A stretch of DNA of 64,000 nt, taken from a virus. Positions 22,536-53,929 of this stretch are shown piece after piece. Under the pieces are notes generated by a model. That model was not told the DNA's origin and did no database searches. It was given only the letters and a program-made list of their open reading frames with translations. How positions within the stretch are numbered: the first letter of the stretch is position 1; the number at the start of each line of letters is the position of its first letter. Both the position numbers and the translations under genes were made by a program. The stretch spans positions 1 to 64,000 of IMG/VR virus record IMGVR_UViG_3300042549_009011; one strand, given 5' to 3'.

Positions 22536-22582
22536 GGGTGGATTGTGGTTTGTTTTGGGGTGGTTGTAAAGAAGAAAGTGAT

Positions 22583-22655
22583 CTTGTTGAGTGAGATTCG
22601 AACTCACCTTTTAGGGGGTTTAGCCCTTTGTCTTGTCCCCCTAGACGATCAACAA
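22583..22655 (-). tRNA. tRNA-like cloverleaf with AAA at the anticodon position and no encoded CCA
   Basis: TTGTTGA-TC-GTCT(AGGGGGACA)AGAC-A-AAGGG(CTAAACC)CCCTA-AAAG-GTGAG(TTCGAAT)CTCAC-TCAACAA-G. Confidence 0.7.
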
Positions 22656-22972
22656 GTTTTAGAAATTGATGGCATGTCTGAGGGATTTTACCCCGCCGTT
22701 ATTCTCGACTCTCTTAGCCAGTTTCGAGCGACTTTTTCTACTAGGGCGTTCCCTCCCTCGCATGAATACAAGTTACCATTTTTTCAGAAAAGCGCAAGGA
22801 TTATTTTAATTATTTTTTTCTAATATTTCTCTTGACATGGTAGGCGGGAAAGCATCTAACAGTTTTTTATCTGGCGGCGGGGCGCTCGCATAAAAATTCC
22901 ACAGCGTGTCAAGTGTTTTTATTGATTATTTTTGCGCGAATGTTTGGGGCGGCTTTCGCCGCCCCTTGTCCA

Positions 22973-44778: not shown

Positions 44779-46092
44779 ATGAGCGTTGAAAGAGTAACTT
44801 ATGCAGATTCAAGAGTCTACGTAAATAATATTTTGCTTACTGGCATATCTAGTTGCGAGATTAACGCAACTAGAGAATTCGAATCTTTAAGTTCTCTACT
44901 TTCTTTAAATACAGTAGATAAAATATTAAAATCAGATCAAAAACCACAAGTAACTCTTTCTTGGATTGTTGGAGAAGAATCAAGCGATCCATTCTTTGAT
45001 TTTGAAACTAATGGAATTTTATCTGTTGACAGCTTCACTATTAAAAAAAGAGATATTTTAGGCACTTTAGAAGCAACGGGATGTTTTCTCACTTCTTATT
45101 CTGTAGATGCCTCTGTTGGTTCTTTAATTACTGCAAATGCATCATACGAAGCACTTGGTTACGAATTCACCGATGATGGGAAATTAAATATAGCCGACCA
45201 AACATCAGATTATTATAGAGCTTTTGTGCCTTCTTCAATACAGTTAAGTTCAAACTTTTCAGAAGGAGATATATTCTCATTCCCTATACAAAGTTTTCAA
45301 ATATCAGTTCCGATACAAAGAAAAACAATTAAAAAAGTTGGCGATTTAAATGCTCAGTATAGATATCCAGTATTCCCAGCAGAAGCATCCATATCTTTTT
45401 CTGCAATCAAAAATGAAATTACTGGATTGGATTTCTCTAAAATAGTTTTAGAAAAAGGAAATTTTCAAATAGAAATGTTGGGTTGTGACAATCCATCAAA
45501 AACTTACGTATTAGATAATTGTTCTTTAAATAGTGTTTCTGAATCCATAAGCACTGACGAAAAGGCATTAATTAATTTTGAGTATTCTTCGACTATAATT
45601 GGCAATTCTTTTTTATATTATTAATACATGAAAATCATTTCTCCAATAGAAGAATATTATAGCCTAAAGTTCAATGCGAATATTTTAGTTGATGTTCCAG
45701 ATTCTGGTTTTTCTTTTTATTTTGGCAAAACTGGAGTTTCTGGTTCTTTTTCTACTGGTTTTGGTTTTTATGGTAGTGGGGGAATGATTTTCGATAATTC
45801 TGGAAATTTCTTTGGCGGTTATCATAGCGGTAGGCAAAATCAGATAGAGGGAAATTTATTTGGAAGAAGACTATCTTATTTTTACAATGGATCTTTAATT
45901 AATAACAATTTACCTTCTCAAAAATTTTTCAATGCAGTAGAGTTTGATAAACACAGAAATAGTCAACTAATCTTAGATATTAATTACTTCCAAAAAGAAG
46001 ATACTTATATAAACGTTTATGCAAGTGGGCAAATGGTTCTTTTAGAAAACAATATTCCGATACAAATTCCAGAACAATACGCAAACGATTAA
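44779..46092 (+). CDS. Tube-like minor tail protein (44779-45624) and small tail protein (45628-46092)
   Basis: IQSFQISVPIQRKTIKKVG matches the tube segment IQSATIEVPLSRETLEKLG. Confidence 0.55.
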
Positions 46093-46138: not shown

Positions 46139-47858
46139 ATGAAAGAAATCTATAGTTTTAATGTCGAAAGAGAAATAGAGTCCTCAAAGCCAGTCATCAA
46201 AAAAACAAAAAATGGCACAATTGAGTCTTTTGAAAAAACAATCAAAAAAGTTAATCATAGAGTGGTATTTTTGAAGCCATCAATGTCTAAAATTGAAGAG
46301 GCAGAATTCTTTTATGGTCAAAAGTTTAACGAGTATATCAATTCTGGCTTTCTTACAAAAGCGATGCTTAACAAGAAGATGGGCGATATTGGAGGTCTTT
46401 CTTCTAAAGTTACGGTAGAGTCTTTACAAAAAGCAATCGTAGACAACATTGAAGCCTCAAGAGTAATTGAATTTTATGGTTCTTCTAAAGATTTAACAGA
46501 AGAACAGCAGAATAAATTAGATGAAGCAAAATTAACTTTTTCCTCAACAAAGAGCCAAGTTACAGATTACGAGCAAGCAATTCGTTCTCAATTTTCACAA
46601 ACAGCAGATGTTAAGTCTGAACAAAAACTTATTGAGTGGCTTATCTTCCACCTTGCTTTTTACGAGGAAGATGTTGATGGCAAAAAAGAATTATTTCCAA
46701 TTTTCGAAGGAGACTCCTTTGAGGATAAAAGATATATGTATTTGGAACTTTGCGAAAAAATTGAGGATATAGAAAATCATAACTTATATAAAGTAAAAGC
46801 TATTTTCGATAAGTCTTTTGAAACTCTTGCTCGCGTTGCCAGTATTTGGTATAATAAAATTGCAGAAAATCAAGAAGATATTGACAAGGCTCTTAAAGAA
46901 ATGTTCTCAAACCAAAGTTCAGATGTTGAAAAACAAAACGAAGATTTAAGTTCTGATAAAGAAGAATCCGTAACAGATGGACAAGAAGGAACAGATAAAG
47001 AAGGCTGAAATAGTTCTTCTTGATATTCTTCGTGGTTACAGCATACTGCAAGCTGAAGAAAAGTGTTTATATTTTAAACACTTTTCTTTGTTGGACTCTT
47101 TAGTATTTGAAGAGGAGTATCACTTATCTTTGGCTTCAGCCAAAAAGTCTGGAATTAAAGATGAGAAGCAAATTATTGATGATGCTGTAAAAAGCAAAAA
47201 ATGGTCTATTCAAAAAGAAGAGCAAATCAAATCTTTAATTTGGACTATAAATAAATTATCCGCTGCTACAAAAAAAATCTCTGATCCTTACCAAAAAAGA
47301 AGTGCCGAAAATAGCGTTAAAGAAAGACAAGAAGAATTACATAAGCTAGAAAAAAATAGATCAGAAATATGCTCTTTTAGTGCAGAATCTTTTGCTCAAA
47401 ATAAGAAGATCAAAAAGATAATAAGCTCTTGTTTATATGAAGATTTAGAGTTTAAAGACAAGATAGATTCAGACTCGATAACATATTATTATAATTCTAT
47501 TTTCTTTGATAAAATATCAGAATTAAATAATCAAAATATTATTTTAACCGCAGCATATAATACTTCTTTTTTTGAAGTATTTTGTTTGAATTATAGAACT
47601 CCACATATTATTTTAAAGAACTCTGGTATGGATATGACTGTCTTTCAGAAAAATTTATTAGTTTATGCAAATGCCTTATTAAATAAGCTAAAAAATACAA
47701 ATATTCCAGAAGCAATAATAGAAGATCCTATCAAAGTTCTTAATTATAAAGAGCAAGAAAACGATAATGGTAAAAAGACAAGCATAGGAACAGAAGACTT
47801 AAAAGAAAAAATGGCTAAAAATGGCGGCAAATTAAATCCAGAAGATTTAATTACTTAG
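46139..47858 (+). CDS. Probable tail assembly chaperones (46139-47008, 46977-47858)
   Basis: Helical charged proteins directly upstream of the tape measure. Confidence 0.5.
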
Positions 47859-47872
47859 TGTAAATAAAGTAA

Positions 47873-50800
47873 ATGGCTAAAAGCGCAATAGATGTAAGTT
47901 TAAACATGACTCTGAATGCTCAGAGTTTAAACGCTGCTACAAAAGAGGTAAGACAATCTCTTGGTAGAATAACTGGCAATGCATCTGAATTCCAAAAATC
48001 TCTTGATGCTTCTACTGCGCGTGTTTTCGCTTTCGGAGCTTCTACTTTTGTTATTGAAGGAGTAAAACAAGCATTTAGTGCTTTAGTATCAACTACTATT
48101 GAAGTTGAAAAAAGGCTTATTGAAATTAAATCTATTTTTGGTGGAACTGCTAATGAGTTTAATCAATTTAGAGAGTCTATTTTCCAAGTTGCGAAAAATA
48201 CTGGTCAATCTTTTTCTGTTGTAGCTGATGCGGCAGCAGAATTTGCTCGTCAAGGTCTTGATGCGGCAGAGACAGCAAAAAGACTAGAGGCTGCTCTTAT
48301 TTTAACAAGAGTGTCTGGTCTTGATTCAGTTAAGGCTGTTAGCGCTTTAACGGCTGCAATTAACGGATTTAGTTCTGCTGGATTAAGTGCTGCACAGATT
48401 ACGAATAAATTGATTGCAGTTGATACAAAGTTTGCCGTTTCTGCGAAAGACTTGGCAGAAGGATTTAGTCGTGCTGGTTCTACAGCAGAAGATGCTGGCG
48501 TTAGCTTTGACGAGCTTCTAGGCATCATTACAGCGGTTCAGCAAACGACTTCCCGTGGTGGCGCTGTTATTGGTAACGCCTTAAAATCAATTTTCACAAG
48601 ATTAAGCAGAAGCTCTACAATTGAAGACCTTCAAGGTCTTGGTGTTGCTATTGATTCTTCTCAAACTGGTATCCAAAAACTACAAGCACTTTCTAATGCT
48701 TTGGATCAAATTAGCGATCCATCAAAAGCTTCTCAAATCAAAGAGCTTGCTGGTGGTGTTTATCAAATCAACATTGTTAGTGCGGCTCTTAAAGATTTAT
48801 CAAAAGAAACCTCTATCTTCTCACGTGCTACCGCTATTTCTGCTGGAGCGACAAATGAGGCTTTGCAAAAAAATAATGATTTAAATAAATCGTTAGCTGC
48901 TCAATTAAATTCTTTAGTTATAGGTTTTACTAATTTAGCAGAAAAAATTGGACAAATTACATTTGCACCATTGCTTGGTACTCTTGCTGGATTAGCAACT
49001 AAAGTATCAGATTTCTTTAACGAAGCTTTAGACCCAGAAAAAGGAAATGCATTTGTTCAAGGTTTATTAAAAAGTATTGGATCATTTTTAAGTGGCCCTG
49101 GGCTTGTCCTTATTACTACAGCTTTTTTAAAGATTATAACTCTTGTAGCTAGATATGCAAAAGAAGGATTTGCTTCTATTTTATCTATTGGCACACAAAC
49201 AGAAAAATTAAAAAGCATTCAAGAAGGTCTTGTTAATAGTTTAATTAATGATAAGAAATTTAGAGAAGACATTCTAAGCTCCACTTTAACTTTAGAGCAA
49301 AAACAAAAAGCAGTTGGAGATGCTATTGCTAGAGAAAATGCTTTGTTAAGAGAACAACAAGCAATTCTAACTACTTTATCTAAACAAGCGTTAAATCTTG
49401 GAGTATCTGGATTTAGTAAGGAAAAAGGATTTACAGGAAAATCTGGTAAGCCTATTGCAGCAAGAGGTTATATTCCAAATTACGCGGCTTCCGCTCAAGA
49501 GACAATGATGGAAACATCTGCGGCTAGAGAGCATGGATATAAAGCAGGAAAGGTTTATAATACAAGATTATATGATGGAACTGGAGGTTCTTTTAAATCT
49601 ACCGTAAATAGCGCGGAGACAATCAAAACAGTAAGAGGTCCAAATGGTAAATTAGGCACTTATGTTATTCCTCCTAATGGTTTTGCTGGTAAAGGATTTG
49701 TTCCTAATTATGTAGGACCAGCAGCCGCGATTAGAGCGGCTGGTATTAAATCGCTTAATGATTTAGAAAAATATAGGGTAGCTGGAAAGAACTCGTTTCA
49801 GATAGGTGGAACAATAATTCCTCTTTCTCAAGCTAAAAATGTTTTAGGTAGAACTTCAACTCAAGAAACAAACGCAAGAGGTCAAGAAAGACTTATTATG
49901 GATGGCGGTCAATTTGGCATGCTTATACCAAACATTAAAGCTCTAGGATCTGTCAATCAGTTTCTAGGAACATTAGACACTTCAAAAGGAAAAGTCCCAT
50001 ATAATTTAAGTAACTTAGCTATTAGAGGTCCACAAGTACCCAATGCAGTTGATCAAGCGGCAAATCCAGATGATGAAAAATTAAAAGAGAGTATTTATAA
50101 AACTGTTTCTAATAAAGCTGCTAGTTTCGCTAATCTTTTAAGAGGTCAAAAAGTTTCTTCTTCTGATATAAGATCTTCTTTAGAGCAAAATAGTGGAGCT
50201 ATTGGAGCTTTAAATTCAGCAGTAGGAGCAGCTTTTGAATCTGCCGTTTTATCTGCATATCCATCTCAATTTTTTGATAAACAGGCAAATAAAATTGGTG
50301 GAGACTTTGATTTAAGAAATCCATCAGAAGACGTAAGAACTTTATTTGCTTTAGACGCAGCAAGAACAAAGTTAGATTTCAAAGCATCTGATTCAAAGTT
50401 CTCTAAAGATAGTATGGCTAAAAAGATTTATAATGAAAATTATAAAAACAAAGTGCCTTCTACTTTAGGAAAAAGAGGTGCTGCTAGTGGTTTTATTCCT
50501 AATTTTGCTGTTGATCTTAACAAGTCTCAAGATTATGTTAAAAATCAAAGAAAGAGAAACTTTAAAGCTTCAACATATAGAAAAGCTACTGGAACAATAG
50601 GTTCTTTGTTTAAATCATTACCAGAGAAATTTTTTGCTGACGGTGTTCTAGGGGATGGAGCGCAGGGACTAGAGACAAATGGTATATTTAATTTAATTAA
50701 ACAAAATGCATTATACGGTGCATCGTTTGCTGGTCCAAAAGCAATAAAATTTGTAACTGAGGCTGAAAAATATGGATTAAAAGTAGAAAAATCTTTAAAA

Positions 50801-53800
50801 GACAAACTCGCAAAATTAGTTGTTAAGGGAGCTTCAAAAATGAAGGGATTTGCTGGAGGCTTCCTCCCCAACTTCGCCAATCCACTACAAGATGCCTTGG
50901 GTCGCGAAATGGCTGCTGGTGTTCCTGCTTCACAAATTTATGTTGATTCTTCTGCAAGACTTCGTAATTCTAACAATCCTATGGGATTGATGGTGGCAAA
51001 CTCTATTGACGAGCCAAAAGGCGGTTATCAAGGAATCAATAGAGCCGTTAAAGAAGGAAAAAATCCTAGAAAATATGGTGCTGCTGGTGGATTTGTTCCA
51101 AATTATGCGAAGGGAGGTTCGGGATTATCTGGTGGTATTGGTAATTTACAGATTGCATTTTTTGCATTATCTACCGTTTCAAATACTCTTTTGGCTTCGA
51201 ATAACGAATTAAATGATACTATACAAAAAGTTATTACAGGACTTTCTACATTACTTATTTTACAATCTTTAGCTTCGCCATTAAAAGGTGTGGTTGGTAC
51301 ATTTACAAAGTTTCCAAAATTATTTTCTTCATTAGGGAAAAATATTTCGAAATTTGGATTACTAAAAGCTCCAATTGCAGCGCTTTCAGCACCGCTATTA
51401 GGTTTGGTAGCAGTCGCAGGTACACTTTTAGCTATTGGAATTACTTTCAAAACTCTTCAAAGTAAAATTAATAAAAGCTTAGAAGAATCTCTAAACATCA
51501 ATAAACGAGTTGCCTCAGAAAGAAAAAAAAGAATATCAGAAGGAGAAATTGCTTTGCGAGGAACTGGTGCATCAGATACATCTGGAATTGTAGAAAGATC
51601 AAATCAAGAAGTAGATAGAGTAAAAAAATTAAATGATTTGCAAGTTGAGCTTGATAAAACTGGAAGCGGTTTTATTGATAGCTTTTTAGAATCAGGCATC
51701 CTTTTTACTGATATTAAATTCGATGCAACCGCTTCTACTCAAGCAAAACGAAAAGAAATTCAAAAGAAAATAGAAGAATTAGAAAAACAAGGAGAAGAAA
51801 CTTGGGGACAATATTCTAATGATATTGATGCAATTAAAAAAGCACAAATAAAATTACAAAAAAATAACGAACAAGTTCAACAAATAGCATTACAGAAAAC
51901 ATCTTCTGGAAGATATGCTTCCAGTATTTTGGGTGTTGCTAGTCAGTTAAAAACAGACAAATCTTCTTTAGAGGCTAAAAGATCTGGCTTGACAGAAGAA
52001 TTACAAACTTCAAAGAAATCTGCTACAAAAGACGAAACTGTTGAAGAGAAAAACAAACGATTAAAAAATGAATCTAGAATAAAAGAAGAAATTTCTTCTT
52101 TAGACAAGGATATTAAAGCTACTTCAAGCGCTTTGGCAGATAGCTTTAATCAATTTAATCAAGTTATAGAATACTCTTCGGAAAATTATGACAAAGCATT
52201 TGAAGATGCTATATCTTCTTTTAAAAAATCTGCTTCTTTGTTATCTTCTACTTTAGAAGAAACTGCAAAATTTCTAATGCAAAGAGGTCAATCTTTAGAT
52301 ATCGCTTCTTCATTAACACCAGCTTCTGGAAAGTCTTCAGAAATTTTAGCCAAACAACTTCAAATAGCTTCTGGAAAAAATCAAGCACAAACATCTAGAA
52401 ATGAATTCAAACAATCTATACTTGATTTTGGAAAAAATTTAAATAATTTAGATGTATTAAAAGTATCAAATGCCCCTCAAGAAGAAAGGGAAAGACAAAT
52501 AGCAGAATTTAAGAGTTTAAACGCAAGAATAAAACCAGATTCAACAGTTGGAGAAGACGGATTGACTGTAAAGCAAAGATCTGAAGTAGAGAGAAGTTTC
52601 GCTAGTAATAAAGCTAGTGCTGAAGGTTTTTCTTTGCTGCAAGGATCAGAGGATATTAAAAAATTAGAAAAAGATTTAACAACTGGAAAATTTGACCAAA
52701 ATATTTTTAATGACTTTTTCTCAGGAGGAGAAAAGGCTTTAAAAGATACTCTACAAAAATCATTTTCTTCTGTAGATTTCGAAAAAGATCAAGGAAAAGA
52801 ATTGTTTAATAAAGCCAAAGAAAGCGCCATCGCTTATAGAGACAACTTAATAAAAGGATATACTGAAGCAAGAAATATACAAACTCAAATTAATAATGAT
52901 ATCAAGGCTAATGGTTTAGAATTAGTTGCGGCACAAAAACAAGCTCTTTCAGAATTGCCTAATGTATTAAAACAAATAAGGGAAGGTGAAAAAGTAGATC
53001 CAACTGCTTTATTCAATAAGTTTCAGGAAGCAGCTAAATTATTAAAAACAGGAGATCCTAAAGATGCTAGAAAAGCTAATGAAATTTTAGCATCAACAAG
53101 TGGAGAATCAGAAAGATTTAAAGCTCTTTTTGGGCAACAAGCTTTAGAGGGAATTCAACAAAGATCTGGATTAACACCAGATATTATATCAAAATCTGTT
53201 AGCACAGCAAGTTTAGATAAAATAGATTATAGCAGTATTGAAGATATTATTAGGACAAAATTTTCAGTTGGATCAGATGAAGCTTTAAGAAGCTTGAATA
53301 AAGTTAAAGTAGATCCAACAAAATTACAAGATTTCCTTAATACTATTAATAGAATTACTTCTGGTGGAAGTGCAAAATTAAAAGAAGCTGGAGCAGATAT
53401 AACTGGAAGTTTAGGGGGACTTTCTAAAGGGAAAATTGGTGCGCCAAGTGTTAGAGAAGTAAATCAATCATTAAGAAGCGAATTATCTTCTGCTTCAAAA
53501 GAACAACTGGTTGGGCTTGATAGCACTTTAAAAGCTTTTGTTAAAGATAGCAGTAATGTAGAAATATTTAAAAAGCTAGAAGAACAACTTAAACAAACAT
53601 TAGGTGCAGAAAAAGGATCTAAATTTGCTTCTGCATACAAAGATGCAACTAAACAAGGAGAATTTACTGGCGAAGATGCAGAAGTCAGCAAATTAACCGA
53701 AAAAAGAAACCAGTTAGCGGTTGAAATAGATGCAGTAAATAAACAAGTCCAAGATTTTAAAACAGCATTCGATAAAACAAAAATCACAGCTTCAATAGAT

Positions 53801-53929
53801 CAATTGGCTGAAGTTGTTAATTCAGCGTCTGCAAATATAATAAGCTTTTCAGAATTGACTAGAAAAATAGATCAGATAGGAACTATTCTTAATAACAATC
53901 CACTGTTTGGAACAGCAGTAAGTCAATAA
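47873..53929 (+). CDS. Tail tape measure protein (TP901-like core) with inserted modules
   Basis: 2018 aa; AAAEFARQG, LAEGFSRAGSTA and GAVIGNALKSIFTRL core motifs; hydrophobic and coiled-coil segments. Confidence 0.9.
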   Translation: MAKSAIDVSLNMTLNAQSLNAATKEVRQSLGRITGNASEFQKSLDASTARVFAFGASTFVIEGVKQAFSALVSTTIEVEKRLIEIKSIFGGTANEFNQFRESIFQVAKNTGQSFSVVADAAAEFARQGLDAAETAKRLEAALILTRVSGLDSVKAVSALTAAINGFSSAGLSAAQITNKLIAVDTKFAVSAKDLAEGFSRAGSTAEDAGVSFDELLGIITAVQQTTSRGGAVIGNALKSIFTRLSRSSTIEDLQGLGVAIDSSQTGIQKLQALSNALDQISDPSKASQIKELAGGVYQINIVSAALKDLSKETSIFSRATAISAGATNEALQKNNDLNKSLAAQLNSLVIGFTNLAEKIGQITFAPLLGTLAGLATKVSDFFNEALDPEKGNAFVQGLLKSIGSFLSGPGLVLITTAFLKIITLVARYAKEGFASILSIGTQTEKLKSIQEGLVNSLINDKKFREDILSSTLTLEQKQKAVGDAIARENALLREQQAILTTLSKQALNLGVSGFSKEKGFTGKSGKPIAARGYIPNYAASAQETMMETSAAREHGYKAGKVYNTRLYDGTGGSFKSTVNSAETIKTVRGPNGKLGTYVIPPNGFAGKGFVPNYVGPAAAIRAAGIKSLNDLEKYRVAGKNSFQIGGTIIPLSQAKNVLGRTSTQETNARGQERLIMDGGQFGMLIPNIKALGSVNQFLGTLDTSKGKVPYNLSNLAIRGPQVPNAVDQAANPDDEKLKESIYKTVSNKAASFANLLRGQKVSSSDIRSSLEQNSGAIGALNSAVGAAFESAVLSAYPSQFFDKQANKIGGDFDLRNPSEDVRTLFALDAARTKLDFKASDSKFSKDSMAKKIYNENYKNKVPSTLGKRGAASGFIPNFAVDLNKSQDYVKNQRKRNFKASTYRKATGTIGSLFKSLPEKFFADGVLGDGAQGLETNGIFNLIKQNALYGASFAGPKAIKFVTEAEKYGLKVEKSLKDKLAKLVVKGASKMKGFAGGFLPNFANPLQDALGREMAAGVPASQIYVDSSARLRNSNNPMGLMVANSIDEPKGGYQGINRAVKEGKNPRKYGAAGGFVPNYAKGGSGLSGGIGNLQIAFFALSTVSNTLLASNNELNDTIQKVITGLSTLLILQSLASPLKGVVGTFTKFPKLFSSLGKNISKFGLLKAPIAALSAPLLGLVAVAGTLLAIGITFKTLQSKINKSLEESLNINKRVASERKKRISEGEIALRGTGASDTSGIVERSNQEVDRVKKLNDLQVELDKTGSGFIDSFLESGILFTDIKFDATASTQAKRKEIQKKIEELEKQGEETWGQYSNDIDAIKKAQIKLQKNNEQVQQIALQKTSSGRYASSILGVASQLKTDKSSLEAKRSGLTEELQTSKKSATKDETVEEKNKRLKNESRIKEEISSLDKDIKATSSALADSFNQFNQVIEYSSENYDKAFEDAISSFKKSASLLSSTLEETAKFLMQRGQSLDIASSLTPASGKSSEILAKQLQIASGKNQAQTSRNEFKQSILDFGKNLNNLDVLKVSNAPQEERERQIAEFKSLNARIKPDSTVGEDGLTVKQRSEVERSFASNKASAEGFSLLQGSEDIKKLEKDLTTGKFDQNIFNDFFSGGEKALKDTLQKSFSSVDFEKDQGKELFNKAKESAIAYRDNLIKGYTEARNIQTQINNDIKANGLELVAAQKQALSELPNVLKQIREGEKVDPTALFNKFQEAAKLLKTGDPKDARKANEILASTSGESERFKALFGQQALEGIQQRSGLTPDIISKSVSTASLDKIDYSSIEDIIRTKFSVGSDEALRSLNKVKVDPTKLQDFLNTINRITSGGSAKLKEAGADITGSLGGLSKGKIGAPSVREVNQSLRSELSSASKEQLVGLDSTLKAFVKDSSNVEIFKKLEEQLKQTLGAEKGSKFASAYKDATKQGEFTGEDAEVSKLTEKRNQLAVEIDAVNKQVQDFKTAFDKTKITASIDQLAEVVNSASANIISFSELTRKIDQIGTILNNNPLFGTAVSQ

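Follow-up and report, generated by a model that had tools for sequence, protein, structure and literature searches.

Exchangeable modules between copies of a conserved decapeptide in the giant tape measure protein of an uncultured lake phage

Tape measure proteins (TMPs) are usually viewed as rulers and channel formers, sometimes with one cell-wall hydrolase, and enzymatic domains are embedded in the TMPs of mycobacteriophage TM4 and of T5 (pb2). These known TMP-embedded domains are single, target peptidoglycan and do not form shuffled arrays. We analysed the first 64,000 nucleotides of IMG/VR virus record IMGVR_UViG_3300042549_009011 (positions 1 to 64,000, hereafter the window), which come from the genome of an uncultured lake phage (147,748 bp, or ~148 kb, with ~33% G+C). 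The TMP gene of this phage (P0001; 47873 to 53929, + strand, 2018 codons without the stop) encodes an array of four modules bounded by five copies of a ten-residue motif, and modules are exchanged between phages at this motif.

The polyvalent proteins of phages and conjugative elements are giant chains with 2-15 unrelated effector-type domains (Iyer, Burroughs, Anand, de Souza, Aravind 2017, PMC5512222). Their domains include GNAT, restriction-endonuclease-fold nuclease, zincin-like metallopeptidase and lysozyme domains, and the chains are strongly mosaic. Entry into the host together with the DNA is assumed for them, and proteolytic release of the domains has been proposed. In a similar way, chains of some relatives of the window TMP hold at least two unrelated effector-type domains in combinatorial arrangements, and their delivery would follow from TMP biology. 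Unlike in polyvalent proteins, the array lies inside a TP901-family TMP, the same decapeptide stands at every boundary, and most modules belong to no Pfam or PHROG family. The terms "tape measure" and "linker" do not occur in PMC5512222, so the TMP did not serve as their carrier, nor was a universal junction peptide described. Of the systems compared here, the polyvalent proteins come closest in concept to the array, which may be viewed as polyvalent cargo built into a TMP with a universal connector.

Two further groups of proteins are built on recurring boundary peptides. In polymorphic toxins, the demarcating peptides VENN (CdiA) and PxxxxDPxGL (Rhs/YD) stand at the swap boundary, and the Rhs boundary self-cleaves. 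These peptides may be regarded as the nearest analogue of the connector. However, a polymorphic toxin has one C-terminal toxin on a bacterial carrier, whereas up to 13 internal modules are found here in a phage structural protein, with a motif that is repeated and differs in sequence. In viral polyproteins, exposed linkers with a recurring protease-site peptide separate the modules. The array shares with them the ratio of n+1 sites to n modules, but its site is far more invariant among distant relatives.

An exchangeable domain on a TMP-derived carrier has been described in the Sle1-type effectors of actinobacterial contractile injection systems, where the carrier lies in the tube and a domain swap alters the effect on cells (Nagakubo et al. 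2026, PMC13277306). There, one functional domain stands at the C-terminus of a carrier in a bacterial nanomachine, and neither a multi-module array nor a junction motif is present. The nearest cultured relatives of the window TMP, YomI of SPbeta and ORF130 of Lactococcus phage 949, are giant TP901-type TMPs with distal cell-wall hydrolase domains, as are found in the uncultured relatives. Unlike the window TMP, they contain zero copies of the motif, no family 0 module (the constant last module, described below) and none of the tested array modules.

The decapeptide in the window and among relatives

On its profile matches, the open reading frame (ORF) at 47873 to 53929 is a TMP of the TP901 family. 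Pfam PF10145 (PhageMin_Tail) matched residues 105 to 294 with 83.5 bits against a cut-off of 33.2, and the best PHROG tape-measure family gave an E value of 3.7e-49. This core domain (48185 to 48754, + strand) lies within a conserved N-terminal region, residues 1 to 528, which is 26-29% identical to the TMPs of SPbeta and phage 949 and 39-71% identical to those of the compared relatives.

The pattern G[FY]xPN[FY] occurs in the window TMP at residues 532, 608, 873, 996 and 1073. The original prediction had divided the protein at five such motifs, and we found their ten-residue forms starting at exactly the positions it gave: AARGYIPNYA (49457 to 49486), AGKGFVPNYV (49685 to 49714), AASGFIPNFA (50480 to 50509), FAGGFLPNFA (50849 to 50878) and AAGGFVPNYA (51080 to 51109), all on the + strand. 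For a protein of this composition, 8e-4 copies are expected by chance, and the probability of five or more is 3e-18. When all six frames of the 147,748-bp genome were scanned, the full motif was confined to the TMP ORF; one looser match, which lacks the leading G, was located in an ORF of 33 codons. Two AlphaFold2 models were built as monomers from shallow alignments, one for residues 529 to 879 (13 rows) and one for residues 870 to 1090 (22 rows). In both models the motif positions were coil with a predicted local distance difference test (pLDDT) score below 50, between better-predicted elements. The decapeptide therefore has the character of a short linear motif located in a linker.

A homologue search with residues 500 to 1100 returned 351 proteins, 120 of which were analysed together with the window protein. 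Nearly all of these relatives were giant TMPs of 1.3-3.5 thousand residues, many of them on contigs of 100-190 kb. The 121 TMPs contained 663 copies of the motif, from 1 to 11 per protein. Over these copies the consensus spans ten residues, A-[AS]-[SG]-G-[FY]-[VI]-P-N-[FY]-A, and is preceded by a Lys-rich stretch. Leave-one-out counts revealed very high conservation (97-99.8%), with 581/582 for both the Gly and the Pro, 581/591 for the Asn, and 581/600 and 581/585 for the two aromatic positions. In copies that were otherwise perfect, the Asn was replaced by Ser in nine cases and by Asp in one.

The motif is widely distributed among uncultured phages. A profile of the family 0 module with its two flanking motifs, searched against 1.84 billion proteins, matched 967 representatives of clusters at 50% identity; the best 150 of these reached 5354 residues and 14 motif copies. 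A degenerate DNA pattern for the motif detected at least 118 loci in IMG/VR. Among the 118 loci listed, 107 lay in very long ORFs, mostly with several copies, and 11 were chance matches in tiny ORFs. Most of the long motif-bearing ORFs belonged to the same TMP family. A search for short or split forms of the protein yielded for the most part fragments at contig ends. However, a sister group of giant ORFs (L031:1-6120, L138:7362-12995 on the - strand, and L049:3-4094) carries the same motif with another terminal module, of ~61 residues starting YKQEVMGLE. From these sequences, the motif is either older than the constant family 0 module or of wider occurrence. The idea that the motif has its universal partner in family 0 was rejected, since the sister group has the motif without this module.

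Near-identical copies of the window array were present in 21 sequencing runs from lake water, estuaries and the sea, and none of the listed runs was an RNA run. No match to the array was obtained by tblastn in 50,697 records of cultured phages. The family 0 profile likewise matched none of 185,579 prokaryotic genomes, which therefore offered no prophage and no clue to the host. A literature search with the motif strings returned only an unrelated human serum peptide, and no paper found described the motif.

Exchange of modules at the motif

When the 121 proteins were cut at the motifs, 542 segments resulted, and BLAST with single linkage grouped them into 62 families. After a motif-derived sample was added, the set comprised 228 proteins, 823 modules and 111 single-linkage families. 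As many as 55 of the 111 families were singletons. A further count, of families seen only in the independent motif-based sample, gave 54, implying that the repertoire is far from saturated. The architectures were combinatorial, with modules in swapped order (9-1-0 against 1-9-0) and with duplicated modules, and the arrays of relatives held 1-13 modules, against four in the window. Family 2 was usually first, and family 0 was last in nearly all arrays, occasionally also standing inside them.

Alignments of homologous TMPs revealed swapping between motifs, as the original prediction had anticipated. One relative (P0009) shares 32% identity with the window TMP over the N-terminal core but 83% over residues 871 to 1079, exactly the stretch from motif 3 to motif 5. 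Three others (P0002, P0003 and P0012) follow the window TMP at 60-66% identity up to residues 879 to 887 at motif 3, where the similarity breaks off, to resume near motif 4. Over all protein pairs, 72% of the homology-block ends inside arrays lay within 10 residues of a motif centre, compared with 10% of random positions, and the median distance from block end to motif was 5 residues against 47 at random. Thus modules are exchanged between phages at the motifs. The predicted polymorphism of the modules was borne out in the same way, in that their content differs among relatives and the blocks of homology end at the motifs that bound them. TMPs were over-represented among sequence-mosaic proteins in a dedicated survey, but genuine recent TMP mosaicism was not confirmed there (Smug et al. 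2023, PMC10684548). The present arrays supply genuine examples of recent domain exchange, with defined breakpoints and the contrast of 83% with 32% identity within a single protein pair.

The same edges were seen in metagenomic contigs. In four lake runs, contigs matching the window diverged from it into unrelated sequence at 50480, 50487, 50510, 51078 and 51108, at the edges of motifs 3 and 5; these are 5 of the 21 listed contig ends (P = 3e-3). In lake run X17, the summed contig depth was 6-25 over modules 3 and 4 (50424 to 51107) and ~3-5 on the flanks. This excess suggests more abundant phages that share only the block of modules 3 and 4. Read joints from motif 3 to motif 4 or 5 were not counted as deletions, because other phages may align through the repeated motif; the sides of these joints were 28-35 nt long with 85% likeness.

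The five copies in the window use different codons. Only 15-27 of 36 bases agree between copies, and the exact words that they share are 7-11 nt long. Motif 4 is encoded by GGC TTC CTC CCC AAC TTC GCC, while the other four copies are A+T-rich. The synonymous variation, together with the invariance of the amino acids, indicates that selection acts on the peptide. The G+C-rich motif 4 lies where the block of module 4 begins. Otherwise distant TMPs share this block at 83% identity, and the G+C-rich codons may be the trace of a recent import.

In the window, the inter-motif segments are 66, 255, 113 and 67 residues long and have the family architecture 2-1-7-0. Module 1 (49487 to 49684, + strand, 66 residues) belongs to family 2, the usual first module, which has 33 members and no Pfam match. 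Modules of this family are 66-75 residues long, and the family also forms the N-terminal 74 residues of families 8 and 16. The AlphaFold model of module 1 consisted of short strands with low confidence. Module 2 (49715 to 50479, + strand, 255 residues; family 1, 43 members) carries a nuclease-like signature in its C-terminal part. Module 3 (50510 to 50848, + strand, 113 residues; family 7) is predicted to be a helical bundle. Module 4 (50879 to 51079, + strand, 67 residues) is the constant family 0 module, of which 119 copies were found in 115 of the 121 TMPs.

Family 0 is the best-conserved part of the tail region. It was 60-73% identical in most of the compared loci and 54% in the most distant one, whereas in the same loci the TMP core was ~40-45% identical and the tube-like and chaperone-like genes were 20-36% identical. 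Module 4 matched no known domain, and the ESM Atlas gave only sub-threshold (0.77) TMP-like leads. A relationship of family 0 to family 2 was considered and rejected, with an hhalign probability of 0.3%. The model of residues 870 to 1090 had a pLDDT of 51, too weak for fold assignment, and Pfam searches with each window module at E <= 10 gave nothing useful.

Enzyme-like modules and the surroundings of the array

A resemblance of module 2 to PD-(D/E)xK nucleases had been proposed from GAAFESAV...GGDFDL...LDFKAS at 50225 to 50389 (residues 785 to 839). In the family alignment, the conserved core of the module (50174 to 50428, + strand) contains GxxFE with E789 (50237 to 50239), hDh with D813 (50309 to 50311) and DFK with D835 to K837 (50375 to 50383), and E789, D813 and D835-x-K837 are all conserved columns of family 1. 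Families 1, 4 and 5 were joined by hhalign through this C-terminal core with probabilities of 94-96%. Among 100 modules of these three families, 91 contain GxxF[ED], hDh and [DE]xK with median spacings of 22 and 20 residues. The acidic positions interchange Asp and Glu while the Lys is fixed, which gives the classical PD-(D/E)xK look. Elsewhere, 9/9 modules of family 16, 5/5 of family 20 and 2/18 of family 8 had the E..D..(D/E)xK pattern, most other large families lacked it altogether, and shuffled sequences matched it at a rate of 0.45%. Patterns of the E..D..EVK type were also seen in the consensus of families 8, 13 and 18.

The arrangement of residues therefore stood up to comparison, while the fold stayed unconfirmed. 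The model of residues 529 to 879 had a mean pLDDT of 43, with the core region below 50. Module 2 matched no Pfam family at E <= 10, Mrr_cat was absent from the genome at the same threshold, the profile of the nuclease-like core gave only chance matches to PDB sequences (E >= 0.19), and the ESM Atlas returned no usable match. PD-(D/E)xK families are hard to detect by sequence, so the missing profile match does not exclude a nuclease fold. On balance, we judge such a fold slightly more likely than not. Nearly every array has one or two nuclease-like modules, implying that this type is a core component rather than variable payload, and its role might just as well be to bind the end of the phage DNA as to cleave that of the host.

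The modules had also been suspected of being effector-type domains, and the relatives lend this idea support, since enzymes occur among their modules. GNAT (PF00583) was the only module type that matched Pfam, and it was found within modules of families 6 and 36. In P0029 it occupied residues 1359 to 1414, between motifs at 1339 and 1523, with 26 bits against a cut-off of 20.7. GNAT domains also stood between motifs in L020, L022 and L023, and in L021 the score was just under the cut-off. Families 9, 15 and 28 contain a Walker A sequence, and a PDB search with a module of family 15 gave a P-loop protein (E 5e-4). With their Walker A of the form GPSGxGKTT or GxGKST and a length of 150-170 residues, families 15 and 9 look like small P-loop kinase-like or NTPase modules (L021:5786-6286, L023:5696-6196 and L009:6542-6997).

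HExxH was present in 10/10 modules of family 14 (~190 residues; L020:6035-6613 and L022:6047-6613). By this signature the family may be a zincin-like metallopeptidase, and it could process the arrays in the phages that carry it. PDB searches with family 13 and family 14 modules gave chance matches only, family 14 had no Pfam match, and eight arrays from relatives matched no PHROG family. In relatives such as L020 and L022, the GNAT, P-loop, HExxH and nuclease-like modules share one chain. In the window array, the nuclease-like signature is the only recognisable domain type.

The remainder of the TMP consists of two hydrophobic segments and a long C-terminal region. Membrane-span-like segments lie upstream of the array at residues 404 to 429 (49082 to 49159, + strand; maximum of 1.85 in a 19-residue Kyte-Doolittle window) and downstream of it at residues 1161 to 1196 (51353 to 51460, + strand; maximum 2.15). 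Among 108 complete homologues, 102 had a hydrophobic segment upstream of the first motif, while 62 had one downstream of the array and only 5 had one inside it, all judged by one threshold. Residues 1211 to 2018 (51503 to 53926, + strand) form a K/E-rich region by composition, with no domain match, and are presumed to be the length-setting helical part. In relatives, the counterpart of this region bears SLT, GH19 or NlpC/P60 cell-wall hydrolase domains, which lie outside the array, 500-900 residues downstream of the last motif.

The gene order in the window is TerL (33157), a capsid-like gene (39427), a tube-like gene (44779), two overlapping ORFs (46139 to 47858), the TMP gene and large ORFs from 53941 onwards. 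The TMP gene thus lies 3' of the tail-tube-like gene (44779 to 45624), in the position expected for a tail block. The genes neighbouring it had weak matches (E 2.5e-4 to 7e-4) or none, and ten neighbouring structural proteins matched no PHROG at E <= 0.001. The structural genes without PHROG matches point to a very divergent lineage, whose host possibly does not use Shine-Dalgarno sequences. A Shine-Dalgarno-like sequence was found upstream of only 2 of the 26 structural-gene starts between 29226 and 59110, which hints at a Bacteroidota-like diderm host.

The two ORFs directly 5' of the TMP gene (46139 to 47008 and 46977 to 47858) encode ~290 residues each and overlap by 32 nt in different frames. 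They occupy the usual site of the tail assembly chaperone genes with a programmed frameshift, at twice the usual size. Neither matched Pfam or PHROGs, and their identity to most relatives was just 22-32%. Outside the structural region, ARAGORN called a tRNA-Phe with the unusual anticodon AAA at 22582 to 22656 (- strand); the Rfam tRNA model was silent there at the gathering score, and the call is probably false.

Proposed delivery of the array and possible roles of the connector

The original prediction of a polymorphic cargo system is supported in part. We incline, by a little, to the view that the TMP has a built-in array of exchangeable modules and that this array acts as a package of several enzymes that is injected. 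Being contained in the TMP, it would be stored in the tail tube and leave the virion ahead of the DNA, as TMP biology suggests. During injection, the TMP of lambda was labelled by a proximity tag carried on ManZ, a protein of the inner membrane, and TMPs are contacted at the injection site by a host defence nuclease (PMC13190303). The array is hydrophilic and lies between the hydrophobic segments at residues 404 to 429 and 1161 to 1196, and it would be on the N-terminal, DNA-proximal side of a hydrophobic segment. This position, and the dependence of GNAT on acetyl-CoA, imply that the array probably reaches the cytoplasmic side. The peptidoglycan hydrolases of relatives, being in the C-terminal part, would exit first.

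Most probably, a single, slowly evolving partner recognises the connector as a short linear motif. Its invariance in linkers, while other tail proteins are at 20-40% identity, implies either such a reader or a self-contained role. With one universal connector, any module could be inserted in frame. Our first choice for its function is a processing site that releases the modules, a tentative choice that falls short of an even chance. In its fullest form this proposal is more doubtful: the decapeptide would be a universal release or hand-over signal, and one conserved reader, either a host enzyme or chaperone or an unrecognised phage protease, would free or activate the modules in the cell ahead of the DNA.

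Several observations weigh against an injected and processed package. The four window modules have no confirmed fold or enzyme domain, and the recognisable enzymes are all in relatives. The homologue set was gathered by similarity to the window array, so that family frequencies are biased towards the window's modules. For a viral protease site, ten residues are unusually invariant when other tail proteins are just 20-40% identical; viral protease sites normally drift along with the enzyme that cuts them. Among the genes near the TMP none was identified as a protease, and the HExxH module is present in only ~1/10 of the arrays. Finally, folded modules of 250 residues in three copies are too big for the lumen of the tail tube, and unfolded storage would be needed.

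The alternative that survives best, though unlikely in our estimate, is that the connector is a self-contained structural joint. In that case a Pro-Asn turn between aromatics would staple three TMP chains in register or pack on the tube lumen, and the array would stay uncut, like a string of beads held at the membrane. A joint of this kind, needing no partner, would remain invariant while other tail proteins diverge. The motif stands at every boundary whatever the module type, and also in the sister group that has no family 0. The Ser and Asp replacements of the Asn also fit a turn better than a chemical role of this residue. The coil with pLDDT below 50 at the motifs speaks against a joint, but monomer models from shallow alignments are weak evidence on this point.

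Less probable still is a docking site for a chaperone that would keep the modules unfolded and threadable, either the phage tail assembly chaperone or, after ejection, a host protein of the prolyl-isomerase type. A conserved host partner would explain the invariance. Function of the HK97 TMP depends on the periplasmic chaperone FkpA, according to the work of Cumby 2015 as cited in PMC13190303, and the scarcity of Shine-Dalgarno sequences hints at a diderm host of the Bacteroidota type. The residues Y-I-P-N are shared with WEYIPNV, a phage-display peptide that binds SurA P1 with a dissociation constant (Kd) of 1-14 uM (PMC11401910). However, the SurA consensus in that paper, Ar-X-Ar-X-Pro, does not agree with the motif, which as [SG]-G-[FY]-[VI]-P lacks the first aromatic. 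The GNAT modules favour a cytoplasmic over a periplasmic destination, and a further point against docking is the low identity (22-32%) of the phage's chaperone-like genes in most compared relatives.

Self-cleavage of the chain at the invariant Asn through a succinimide, as in intein C-terminal cleavage or in some autotransporters, seems very unlikely. The Asn is present in 581/591 copies and adjoins the Pro, but nine otherwise perfect motifs have Ser and one has Asp at this position. The known cases also need a folded catalytic environment, whereas the motif is in predicted coil, and we know of no precedent for a Pro-Asn-Phe self-cleavage site. Least credible is the suggestion in the original prediction that the motif marks recombination points, if taken at the level of DNA, with a shufflon, cassette switch or homology patch and a functionless peptide: the exchange breakpoints do coincide with the motifs, but the codon divergence among the five copies, down to exact words of 7-11 nt and an entirely different, G+C-rich copy 4, led us to reject any shufflon-like or homology-patch role, the amino acids are kept at 97-99.8% despite synonymous variation, all copies are in direct orientation and in one reading frame, and inspection of the genes next to the TMP gene showed no recombinase.

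The TMP of a large and widespread freshwater and estuarine phage lineage (967 clusters at 50% identity) is a carrier of an open-ended set of exchangeable modules. It offers a concrete and testable case of protein delivery by way of the tail TMP. The host defence nuclease that contacts TMPs at the injection site (PMC13190303) makes TMP cargo relevant to conflicts between phages and host defences. The arrays contain over 100 module families, almost all of them unmatched in Pfam and PHROG, that are candidates for functions in early host takeover or anti-defence. If the connector works as we propose, it could serve quite generally to load foreign proteins into the tails of phages. If the decapeptide is indeed a release signal, the arrays would be plug-and-play cassettes for protein injection, in which any domain placed between two connectors is packed in the tail and delivered, and the module repertoire would be a catalogue of the host-takeover and anti-defence effectors of the first minute of infection.

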